A stretch of 40,189 nt of DNA. Origin: a virus. Where the stretch lies: the IMG/VR virus record IMGVR_UViG_3300023284_001453. One strand, 5' to 3'. Shown here one piece after another: positions 18,001-21,000 of the stretch (the first letter of the stretch is position 1; each line of letters opens with the position of its first letter). The position numbers are program-made.

Positions 18001-21000
18001 GATGAAGAACTTTTCAGATTTGATGATATGGATGAAACAGCAGCAGTTGGAATCGTCACGAAACAAAACACCACAGGCGATGTTGGTCCAGGAACTCTGG
18101 CCCAAAACATCAGAAAACTTTTTCCAAATATGAAGAAGAAAAAGAAGAGCGACTAATCAACAGGCTCCGTTACTGCGACTAATGGATGGCCATTGATCTT
18201 TGCGTTTTCCATTGTCTCATAAACCTTTTGCTCGGCAATTTCACGTGTATATATACCGACAATACCCTTATCTTTGTGATGAATTTCGTAAGTGATAGCA
18301 ACTGCTTCAGGGTGTGATTTGTTAAAGATTTGTTGTAGGATTGCTGTGACGAATTCCATTGGTGTAAAATCATCATTTAGAAAAATGACTTGATACATTT
18401 TTGGTCTAACTGTTTTGACCTTAATCTCTTCGATCGGATCGGCAATATCCGACATCTTAACGATATCTAAAACATCCGTCATTTTTCTCTCCCAAATCGA
18501 TTCTTTATAATACATACTAACACGTTTTTCGTTAATGTCAACCAATTTATAGCAAAACTTTTAGGACCTCTTTTGCTCTTTTTGTCATTGGGACATCTAA
18601 TTCTATAATGTTATCAACCTTGAACATCCTGGTAAAAACCAATCGCATATGGTCATCTAAGATTTGGAGCTCTTCTTTTGATTGATATCTGGTCCCATCT
18701 TTGTCAACGTCTTTGTTAGTATTATAAGCATATTTACCTGGTAAGAAAAACACATATTGATAACGTTTCTGATACAAATCATCGATGAGAAACTTAAACA
18801 TGTCAGCTAAAACAAGTCGTTCACGCTCATTTGCTTTGTCGGTATATAAACATGAATAAAAATAAGGAGTTAGGACGCCACTATCAGTGATCATCCAATC
18901 TGCTGCTTCGGGCACAGCATCTTCTATGCTTCTTTGATGGTGTAATGTTCTGTATTGTTCCCATATTGTCGTCATAGGACCGTTGACTTGTATATCTTGA
19001 CGAATCCATTCTGTAACTAGTTCTACTTTATGTCCTTTTTTCTTCAATTCGACGAAAATATCTGCTGCTAGTGTTGATTTTCCGCTTCCTGCGCTTCCGA
19101 TAAATGCTATTTTTTTAGTCACCTGCTCTTTCCATTATTTCACGATAAGCAAGAAACATTTCATCATCACATTTTTCCCATTTGGGATCATTAAGATCAT
19201 ACAGATCAGGATATTGAGAATTTTTTCTTACTTTCGGTTTTGGCCTTTTATTATTTGATTTGTATCTATTCTTTGTTTTCTTCTTAGAAAACTCTCTTTC
19301 TTTAGCTTCTTCCATTTCCCCATACTTTCTAAGCATAGAATAAATGAATATCATTTCTGTGCCAGTAAGCGCAGAAAACTTCTTAAATTGTATTTTCATT
19401 ATACATCCATTTCGTTGGAGATGTCAAGTTTCATTGTTGTTCTTTTTGTAATTCAGAACGAATTCTTGTTAAGCGACTAACAAACTCTCTTGTTGTCAAA
19501 CACGTTTCACTAGCACTATTACTGCCAATTGAATGTGTTAAGACTGCATCACCTGATGCTAATAATGCTTTCTGGAATTTCGTATTAGTAGCTAAAGCAT
19601 CATAAGCATCATCCAAGAGTGCTTGATATGCTGGCCCATGTCTATCAAACGCTTGGCCTTTCCACCAAAGAGTTTGTTTCTTCTTCCATGCTTTATTACG
19701 TTTCTTGCCTCGAAACTTTGCGCCTTTACCGACAAGCTTACAAACTTCTTCTTGAATATGTGGTTTGTCAAATTTAAATGATTGGAGCAAGCCTTCCATA
19801 CTAGCACACTCTACGCCATCAAACACAAAGGGATGAGGAGGGAAATTCGATATCGCAGAAGATGGGTATCCGCTACCGGAACCAATATCCATTATTTTAA
19901 CCTCATTTTTGAGAAATTCTGTAAAGTATTTATGGCATCAACGTAACCGGGAGGGCATAGGCTTGTCCGGTAATCAAGAAAATTGCTATCAATACTGATA
20001 ATGTTATTATAATATATGATGATGTCTTCATTTTAGTTCCATTCTTAGGAAATTCTGTAAGAAGCATCCAGAACACTTACTTATTATACAGAAAAACATT
20101 TATAAGTCAATAATATTTATCAAAAAAGATATGGCGGGCTATCAACCCGCCATATCACAACAATCACAGACCCCTTATTCTTTAGGAGCCTCTTCGGTCT
20201 GAGCCTCTTCGACCGCAGCTTCTACCTCCATCTGAGTTTCAGATCGTTGAAACGTAAGTCTCTGGTTATCGAATTTAATCATATCGACGATAGAACGTCC
20301 AGCATCGTCATAATGGATTGTAACAAGATCACCAGGCAAAGTTATAGGCAACTCTGCCGAATTAAGACCAGCAGCGCCTGAAAATACCCTATCGGGCTCA
20401 TCGCGAATAACTATGTAGAAATAGCTAGTGCCGTCGATAACTTCAGTGCCAAATCGTGCTACATAGCCTTCCACCATCAGAGCATTTGCACCAGCATCCG
20501 TTCCAGCAACATTGCCTTTGCTGCGGAGGGAAGAGCGGAAAGCCCTCAGTGCGCTCTTAATAAGAGTATGGCTTACGACAACATCGCGATTAACAACACT
20601 TGCTATACCAATCTGTTTTGGATTGCCATCGGCATCCTTGATGATAGCAATGTAAGTCGGATGGCCGCCAACATTGTAGAGGATACAGTTTGTTACAGTC
20701 CAACCATCCTTCTCGGCAACCAGACCAGCAATATTTCGCATACAAGCTTGCTCGGTAATGCCTGACTGCTTATAATACTTCGCCTTACCAGTGCGAGTAT
20801 CGACTAACATAAATCCAGTCGTGCCTTGATCTGCGCCATCGCTCTGGATACCAGTATACCACTTGGCGCGGCCGTCGCTACCATAAACAAGACTTAGACC
20901 GCTATCGAGACCAGAACCAGGAGTGTGTTTCAGCTTATCAAGACCTTCAAAGTTACCCCAAAAACCATGAACCCACTCACCCCAATCATCCACCTGTTCA

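Follow-up and report, generated by a model that had tools for sequence, protein, structure and literature searches.

A NADAR protein of the AdfN family, a NadR-type kinase and a ClpS encoded by neighbouring genes of a large uncultivated phage

The question raised by the locus described here is whether four neighbouring genes, encoding a NADAR-type protein, a small basic protein, a NadR-type P-loop kinase and the proteolytic adaptor ClpS, form one functional module or several independent ones. The genes are carried by IMG/VR virus record IMGVR_UViG_3300023284_001453, a complete metagenome contig of 40,189 bases from the Joint Genome Institute (JGI) with about 38% G+C, called the window below. 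Nearly all of its genes lie on the minus strand and its gene content is of the large-phage type, and a DNA-level search of 50,697 deposited phage records found no close isolate, only the conserved core of the NADAR gene, adfN, being matched. The original prediction held that the four genes are one operon that jointly counters host defences which deplete nicotinamide adenine dinucleotide (NAD+) or carry out ADP-ribosylation, and that hijacks host proteolysis in addition. The analysis presented here points elsewhere: these are probably early host-directed genes under several sigma-70-type promoters that serve three separate functions and do not act as one machine, and the only element among them for which no earlier description was found is the pairing of the kinase with ClpS, a modest novelty, the rest of the cluster being of known kinds.

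All four of the minus-strand open reading frames (ORFs) in question are present where they had been placed, with a revision to the start of clpS:

19431-19892, minus strand: adfN, 153 residues
19115-19399, minus strand: small basic ORF, 94 residues
18547-19122, minus strand: NadR-type kinase gene, 191 residues, GTG start
18153-18545, minus strand: clpS as first called, with a TTG start at 18545
18153-18482, minus strand: clpS as revised, with an ATG start at 18482, 109 residues

The genes had been described as overlapping or abutting, which holds for the small ORF and the kinase gene, but not for adfN, which is separated from the small ORF by 31 nucleotides, nor for clpS, which abuts the kinase gene solely if TTG 18545 is taken as its start. 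The small ORF and the kinase gene overlap by 8 nucleotides in the window and in the related locus L002, and by 1 nucleotide in locus L004, so that the two are probably coupled in translation. For clpS, the TTG was rejected and the true start is almost certainly ATG 18482, to judge from a GGGAGAG ribosome-binding site at that codon that is conserved in relatives, from homologues that start at the same methionine, and from a promoter-like element contained in the 64-nucleotide stretch upstream by which the TTG would extend the gene. The clpS stop lies within a 4-nucleotide overlap with the end of a convergent plus-strand ORF.

Whether the cluster is transcribed as a unit can be gauged from the predicted signals in and around it:

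20128-20156, minus strand: intrinsic-terminator-like hairpin, 13 pairs followed by a T run, which ends the upstream gene of 589 residues
20083-20110, minus strand: sigma-70-like promoter, TTGACT-16-TATAAT (11/12), upstream of a 33-residue ORF and adfN
19398-19427, minus strand: sigma-70 promoter of perfect consensus, TTGACA-18-TATAAT (12/12), at the start of the 94-residue ORF
18514-18541, minus strand: sigma-70-like promoter, TTGACA-16-TAGTAT (10/12) whose -10 is extended by TG, between the kinase gene and clpS

The hairpin marks the upstream boundary of the cluster. Within that boundary, the predicted promoters before adfN, the 94-residue ORF and clpS indicate something other than a simple operon, and the term used in the original prediction proves an overstatement. 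The hexamers of the second and third promoters are identical in the close relatives L002 and L003, with spacers and flanks that vary and, in one flank, an indel of 66 nucleotides. Over the whole window, 12 promoter matches of at least 11/12 fall on the minus (coding) strand as opposed to 2 on the plus strand; several of these matches lie just 5′ of genes. What speaks for a single operon is that the genes share a strand, that no terminator is predicted inside the cluster, so that read-through is possible, and that gene order is preserved in L002 and L003; yet three promoter-like sites split the cluster. As a separate observation, the region between the promoter at 20110 and adfN contains a 33-residue hydrophobic, signal-peptide-like ORF (19930-20031, minus strand; MKTSSYIIITLSVLIAIFLITGQAYALPVTLMP), and the spacer at the same position in L002 measures 147 nucleotides, as opposed to 283 in the window, with no gene called in it.

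The -10 element of the perfect-consensus promoter (19398-19403) overlaps the ATG of the 94-residue ORF. A start at M16 was considered on that account and was ruled out by the MK(I/L) N-terminus and the length (93-97 residues) of 18 homologues (62-100% identity); the version encoded in L004 is 41% identical. With an isoelectric point of 9.5, 23 lysine and arginine residues and a lysine/arginine-rich centre, the product deserves its description as a small basic protein, and it carries a conserved C-terminal motif, W-x-K-C-x-D-x-x-F-L-A-Y-R-E-I. It has no match in Pfam, PHROG or NCBIfam. The ORF is absent from lineages L010 and L012 and from the other lineages compared, and is confined to one clade.

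How the four genes travel together was assessed across 14 loci, consisting of the window and the regions around 13 further kinase homologues. Besides the window, only L002 and L003 have adfN; these two closest relatives encode a kinase 93% identical to that of the window, and the L002 region shares approximately 79-84% DNA identity with the window over most of its length. In L004-L007 other genes fill the adfN slot, and the small ORF, the kinase gene and clpS are all kept. Judged by these comparisons, adfN is a recently acquired accessory gene, and it behaves as a mobile one placed in a variable slot. The family as a whole is common, occurring in 1502 of the 50,697 phage records and in at least 1916 protein clusters. 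The distribution bears directly on the proposal of one jointly acting operon, which we regard as highly improbable: AdfN and a NadR-type kinase would both touch NAD or ADP-ribose chemistry, but L004-L007 and every other lineage compared lack AdfN, which is a widespread mobile accessory in phages of many families, and no biochemical link is known that joins DNA de-ADP-ribosylation, nicotinamide riboside phosphorylation and ClpS. With AdfN in the two closest relatives only and the small ORF limited to a clade, the adjacency of the kinase and ClpS is the sole conserved linkage, and the notion of one module does not survive the comparison.

Considered individually, the 153-residue protein is a full-length NADAR enzyme of the AdfN family by family, fold and catalytic residues. 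It matches the Pfam family Phage_30_3 (PF08010) with 198 bits (cut-off 36; E 5.4e-59), its residues 8-146 aligning to model positions 1-138 of 138, and it is 39% identical to gp30.3 of phage T4 and of the same size. T4 gp30.3 has been renamed AdfN by the LeRoux laboratory (Nat Commun 2025, PMC11825919), being a NADAR DNA ADP-ribosylglycohydrolase that removes ADP-ribose from DNA guanine and reverses the modification made by DarT1; T-even phages escape DarTG1. The E36A and K43A variants of the T4 enzyme were impaired and an RB69 allele without the C-terminal helix was inactive (PMC11825919). The corresponding residues of the window protein are E33 and K40, which are invariant across 32 AdfN homologues, so the NADAR call stands, as does the retention of catalytic residues that had been put forward as a check on it. 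The window protein runs 5 residues past the T4 C-terminus and its model has a helix at 134-152, and so it has the C-terminal helix that RB69 lacks. Searches of the PDB with the single sequence and with a profile gave no match, and fold comparison alone succeeded: the solved structures that the predicted model resembles are three NADARs only, the same top three structural neighbours as were reported for T4 AdfN.

Unlike its T4 counterpart, the window protein belongs to a large uncultivated phage that lacks a close relative at the DNA level, and its function there is argued by analogy: it likely hydrolyses the ADP-ribosyl-guanine made in phage DNA by a host DarT1, in which case an experimentally proven anti-DarTG1 family extends to a very different uncultivated phage lineage. 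The closest AdfN homologues (approximately 65-70% identity) come from Sinorhizobium, Caulobacter and Vibrio phages. Three further homologues of 67-68% identity (P0122, P0135 and P0161) are filed under Patescibacteria, the candidate phyla radiation (CPR), one of them on a contig of 1.1 Mb, and they could represent prophages, phage contigs that were mis-binned, or genuine cellular copies.

The 109-residue product of the revised clpS gene is, by sequence, a canonical ClpS. It matches Pfam ClpS (PF02617) at E 6.1e-29 and ClpS chains in the PDB at E 6.6e-21 to 2.5e-16, as the original call would have it, with about half of the core residues identical to Caulobacter ClpS and 37% overall identity to Escherichia coli ClpS (taken for alignment from the K-12 genome). 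The N-degron binding residues had been singled out for checking, and all six pocket residues (N34, D35, D36, T38, M40 and H66 in E. coli) are identical in the window protein, lying in LNDDFTPMEFV and in the His of EIHH. E. coli residues E79, E82 and K84, which we take to be ClpA contacts in structures of ClpS with the ClpA N-domain, are also retained (TREIAEQK in the window vs TAEVAETK), and the N-terminal extension, a flexible segment on which substrate hand-over depends in ClpS, is similar in length to that of E. coli when counted from ATG 18482 (about 27 vs about 26 residues). With pocket, docking residues and extension all kept, the protein appears equipped to bind N-terminal Leu, Phe, Tyr and Trp and to dock on ClpA. 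It differs from the cellular ClpS of E. coli and Caulobacter in that it is encoded by a phage, is not beside clpA (the 40-kb window has no clpA, clpP or aat gene) and has an N-terminal extension that is unrelated in sequence. An intact pocket and ClpA-docking surface make it a clean candidate for the use by phages of the N-degron pathway found in bacteria.

Phage-borne ClpS is itself uncommon, occurring in 20 of the 50,697 phage records, all of which are jumbo phages except for fragmentary or metagenome-derived records. ClpS in jumbo phages was remarked on by Iyer et al. 2021 (PMC7824862) and Attai et al. 2018 (PMC6102473), and no experimental test of any phage ClpS was found in the literature searched. 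In PA5oct, Atu_ph07, SCTP-2 and Vibrio phage 2.275.O, as in the window, the adaptor is phage-borne and predicted to deliver targets to host ClpAP, and several relatives of the window have an island similar to that of the jumbo phages, with HSP20, ClpX, ribosomal protein S21 and IF3. The difference lies in the kinase: no AAA_28 kinase stands beside ClpS in those phages, and PA5oct, SCTP-2 and Vibrio phage 2.275.O have ClpS together with ClpX, S21, IF3 and Hsp20 and no kinase.

The 191-residue protein is a stand-alone P-loop kinase of the NadR ribosylnicotinamide kinase (RNK) type by Pfam, motifs and fold, as had been proposed, with a substrate that its sequence can only suggest. It matches AAA_28 (PF13521) with 45.6 bits (cut-off 27; E 1.2e-11), the other P-loop families in Pfam being matched over the Walker A region only, and it shows a Walker A motif (G9-x2-G12-x-G14-K15-S-T), a Walker-B Asp (D80) and a LID motif (D142-G-T-R145-x-Q147). 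Its 80 metagenome homologues are 45-95% identical, all have PF13521 and nearly all are about 190 residues long (range 187-227); JGI annotates several as 'nicotinamide riboside kinase'. An alignment of 39 sequences has 27 invariant positions, G9, G12, G14, K15, E67, D80, D142, G143 and R145 among them. The AlphaFold2 model (predicted local distance difference test score, pLDDT, 91.4) matches NadR ribosylnicotinamide-kinase domains best, narrowly ahead of thymidylate kinases, and in a profile comparison with hhalign the protein aligns to the whole kinase domain of E. coli NadR (230-387) at E 3.5e-4, the two having in common Walker A, E-x2-R-x-D, QY, the Walker-B Asp and the DGxR LID. One close homologue, P0207 (543 residues), contains a LAGLIDADG intein-like insertion near its N-terminus, which suggests that the interrupted site is under strong constraint. 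Sequence and profile searches of the PDB matched little beyond the P-loop; their top matches, to designed pentatricopeptide repeat (PPR) or solenoid proteins, were disregarded as repeats of one short helix match. An exact-sequence look-up of the kinase gave no match, probably since the GTG start is recorded as Val.

The narrow structural margin over thymidylate kinases raises an alternative, namely that the protein is a thymidylate, deoxynucleoside monophosphate or deoxynucleoside kinase that provides phage DNA precursors and has no part in NAD metabolism. Thymidylate kinases carry a D-R-(Y/H/F) motif after the Walker-B strand, and the window kinase, whose strand reads ITDSG within a family pattern of (I/V)(T/I/C)D(S/G/A)G, does not. 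No thymidylate-kinase model figures among the 25 Pfam families listed at E up to 1, where AAA_28 passed its cut-off; the thymidylate kinases met in the PDB search align over the P-loop only (E 0.16-0.7); and NadR domains narrowly head the structural ranking, with a DG-x-R LID of the NadR form. In PHROGs, the stronger of the two matches noted is to phrog_2107, labelled 'thymidylate kinase' (E 1.6e-17), the other being to the kinase part of a NadR-like PHROG (E 8.5e-7), but this label, like those in RefSeq, is an annotation only. A role as a nucleotide or nucleoside kinase is unlikely.

Gene context in the relatives leans, as far as neighbours can inform function, towards a role of the kinase in NAD metabolism. 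In L032 the kinase gene lies about 1-4 kb from genes for a PncA-like isochorismatase, an archaeal-type nicotinamide mononucleotide (NMN) adenylyltransferase (E 1.6e-20) and a nicotinate phosphoribosyltransferase (E 1.4e-30); in L034 it adjoins an ART-PolyVal ADP-ribosyltransferase; and in phage Mx1 a distant kinase homologue is found 1.3 kb from NadV. In L031, L012 and L023 it stands beside genes of the cREC type, a domain tied by Iyer et al. to NAD+/ADP-ribose systems. One apparent neighbour was dropped, as the CTP_transf_like gene of L006, first considered as an NMN adenylyltransferase, is CoaD (pantetheine-phosphate adenylyltransferase, E 2e-50). Family and gene context together make nicotinamide riboside kinase the most likely single activity, though one still somewhat less probable than not. 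The cREC-type genes lie between or beside kinase and ClpS (L012 8573-8896 and 9393-9770; L023 6543-6902; L031 5611-5961), and L012 apparently has two paralogues, one on each side of ClpS.

A phage enzyme with a related domain has been characterised as part of NARP3, which consists of the NadR-like bifunctional enzyme Bas30_86 (NMN adenylyltransferase and RNK) and the PnuC-like transporter Bas30_87, and the enzyme's kinase site requires E230 and D275 (Sci Adv 2026, PMC13464706). When these residues were mapped through the near-identical numbering of the Bas27 homologue, E230 aligned with the invariant E67 of the window kinase. The two enzymes have in common the RNK fold, its motifs and the E230 equivalent, and, more broadly, the idea of a phage rebuilding NAD+ from nicotinamide riboside. 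They differ in several ways: sequence similarity to Bas30_86 is marginal (E 0.056, family profile); the window enzyme is a kinase domain only, without the fused NMN adenylyltransferase (NMNAT) domain; the D275 equivalent is Gln; no PnuC-like partner is encoded in the window, where the only vitamin-transporter-like gene is a Vut_1 ORF 8 kb away; and the kinase gene is instead paired with clpS. The window kinase therefore lacks the defining features of NARP3, NMNAT and PnuC. If it is a nicotinamide riboside kinase, it would represent a minimal variant of phage NAD+ restoration that dispenses with both transporter and NMNAT.

The linkage that does persist is that of the kinase with ClpS, and no report of this pairing was found in the literature searched. 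In 11 of the 14 loci (the window, L002/L003, L004/L005, L006/L007, L010/L011, L012, L022, L023, L031, L033 and L035) a same-strand clpS follows no more than 400 nucleotides downstream of the kinase gene; contigs of 110-380 kb exist for the lineage. When all ORFs lying within 8 kb were compared with one another, the kinase and ClpS were the sole genes common to the window clade and L010, L012/L023 and L022. The two proteins give neighbour-joining trees that broadly agree, with pairwise distances correlated at r 0.83 (55 pairs). On these comparisons, kinase and ClpS have been inherited as an adjacent pair through a deep divergence of the phage group, a pattern that a functional link could explain, as could stable co-inheritance on its own.

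The kinase itself belongs to a tight subfamily of 13 clusters (E<1e-30) among 1.84 billion representatives. A scan of IMG/VR with the single protein found no relative and a profile scan only two close loci, and a family-motif scan of one genome per species in 185,579 bacterial and archaeal species found no relative within the tight subfamily. It appears to be rare and virus-specific, its members having been seen only on viral or metagenomic contigs. No fusion of kinase and ClpS occurs among the best 150 of 2770 representatives, where the longer proteins prove to be a kinase with an intein, a tandem kinase, or kinases whose extensions are unannotated.

These results could be taken to mean that kinase and ClpS form a functional two-component system, in which the kinase acts on ClpS, ClpA or the substrates of ClpS, or makes a small molecule that gates N-degron proteolysis. 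Such a system would fit the adjacency amid otherwise unrelated flanks, the congruent trees, the apparent confinement of the kinase subfamily to viral or metagenomic contigs, and the placement of the pair, in several lineages, within an island with HSP20 and ClpX (a similar HSP20-containing island surrounds it in L010, L012, L031, L033 and L035). However, the fold is of the small-molecule kinase type, domain fusion is lacking among the representatives just described, and a cREC gene or an ORF of 107 residues is inserted between the pair in L012, L023 and L031. The pair also comes apart in both directions: L008, L034 and L032, which are nested among loci having ClpS, have the kinase without a nearby ClpS, and in PA5oct, SCTP-2 and Vibrio phage 2.275.O ClpS occurs without the kinase. 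Vertical co-inheritance alone could account for the adjacency, and we judge a two-component system decidedly unlikely. A version of the idea that is very unlikely in our estimation is that the kinase, through a phosphorylated metabolite or protein, controls or supplies a phage-directed N-degron proteolysis of host proteins, by means of a pair specific to uncultivated large phages; if true, this would amount to a virus-encoded regulatory layer on ClpAPS without cellular counterpart. The pair does offer a concrete two-gene construct.

The preferred reading, in which the cluster serves three separate host-directed functions, can be set out as follows. AdfN would strip guanines in phage DNA of the ADP-ribose placed on them by a host toxin of the DarT1 type, and replication could then go ahead. 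The NadR-type kinase would phosphorylate nicotinamide riboside to NMN, which would feed a host or phage NMN adenylyltransferase and keep up NAD+ during infection. Phage ClpS would dock on the N-domain of host ClpA and reprogramme ClpAP by either of two routes. By the first, proteins with N-terminal Leu, Phe, Tyr or Trp would be handed to ClpAP for degradation, a means by which host factors could be destroyed. The second would resemble the known ability of bacterial ClpS to outcompete other ClpAP substrates: the phage protein could block ClpAP by shutting off those substrates, whereby labile antitoxins or phage proteins might be protected and stabilised.

Several points weigh against this reading. 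Most concern the kinase, for which the hhalign probability against E. coli NadR is just 37% and D275 of Bas30_86 aligns with Q122, Asp being the commonest residue in relatives at this position (consensus KRYD). NADase defences liberate nicotinamide and ADP-ribose, not nicotinamide riboside, and the supply of substrate to the kinase is therefore uncertain. Genes for an NMN adenylyltransferase, PnuC, NadV and a Nudix protein are all lacking from the 40-kb window, which also counts against the NAD module that had originally been proposed, and the context in relatives is mixed, with the kinase beside gp32 and RecA in L008 and L034 and a homologue in S-CBWM1 near dCMP deaminase and ribonucleotide reductase. 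With respect to transcription, the overlap of the 19398-19427 promoter with the ATG of the small ORF means that transcripts starting there cannot encode the full 94-residue protein; by their predicted position they would serve the kinase. The reading presupposes a host with DarT1 and ClpA. Finally, T4 AdfN required an additional, unknown T-even factor for its activity outside infection (PMC11825919), and activity in this very different phage is therefore not guaranteed.

The remainder of the window contains further genes, for Cpn10, HSP20, MazG, homing endonucleases and two tRNAs among others, as well as auxiliary genes uncommon in phages:

22457-22888, 25414-26928, 26930-27427, 28368-29204, 29523-30428 and 38036-40000, all minus strand: auxiliary genes uncommon in phages
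23625-24158 (plus strand), 24596-25417 (minus), 24146-24219 (minus) and 29438-29521 (minus): homing-endonuclease ORFs and tRNAs
15347-16108, plus strand: NUMOD3 homing-endonuclease-like ORF
16085-16697, minus strand: broken SpoU-family methylase gene
33895-36471, minus strand: gene for a vault-like protein of 858 residues
36537-36565: sigma-70-like promoter (11/12)
8720-13738, minus strand: gene for a protein of 1672 residues with a subtilisin (S8) domain

The auxiliary genes encode RpiB (E 5e-56), an aldehyde dehydrogenase (E 1e-121), the Vut_1 transporter, a radical-SAM enzyme, a complete HisKA/HATPase histidine kinase, and the ATPase and permease of an ABC transporter. GIY-YIG (SegE-like) and NUMOD3 ORFs flank tRNA-Met(CAT), and tRNA-Leu(CAA) lies farther along. 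The SpoU-family gene is broken into two frames that abut at 16239/16240 with about 22 residues missing; the methylase is intact in relatives (208-209 residues) and the NUMOD3-like ORF lies directly beside the broken gene. The break may mark a pseudogene, be the scar left by an endonuclease, or stem from misassembly. The vault-like protein, unusual for a phage, matches the shoulder domain of the Major Vault Protein (E 6e-22) as well as a vault repeat (E 2e-12), and the promoter at 36537-36565 is just upstream of its gene. In L002, a Flp/Fap pilin and an RcpC homologue of the tad-pilus type (3863-5251) are encoded just upstream of the 585-residue gene that precedes adfN. The S8 protein has its subtilisin domain at the N-terminus, together with He_PIG/cadherin-like repeats, and every relative in the window clade keeps it, at 1663-1828 residues, downstream of the cluster.

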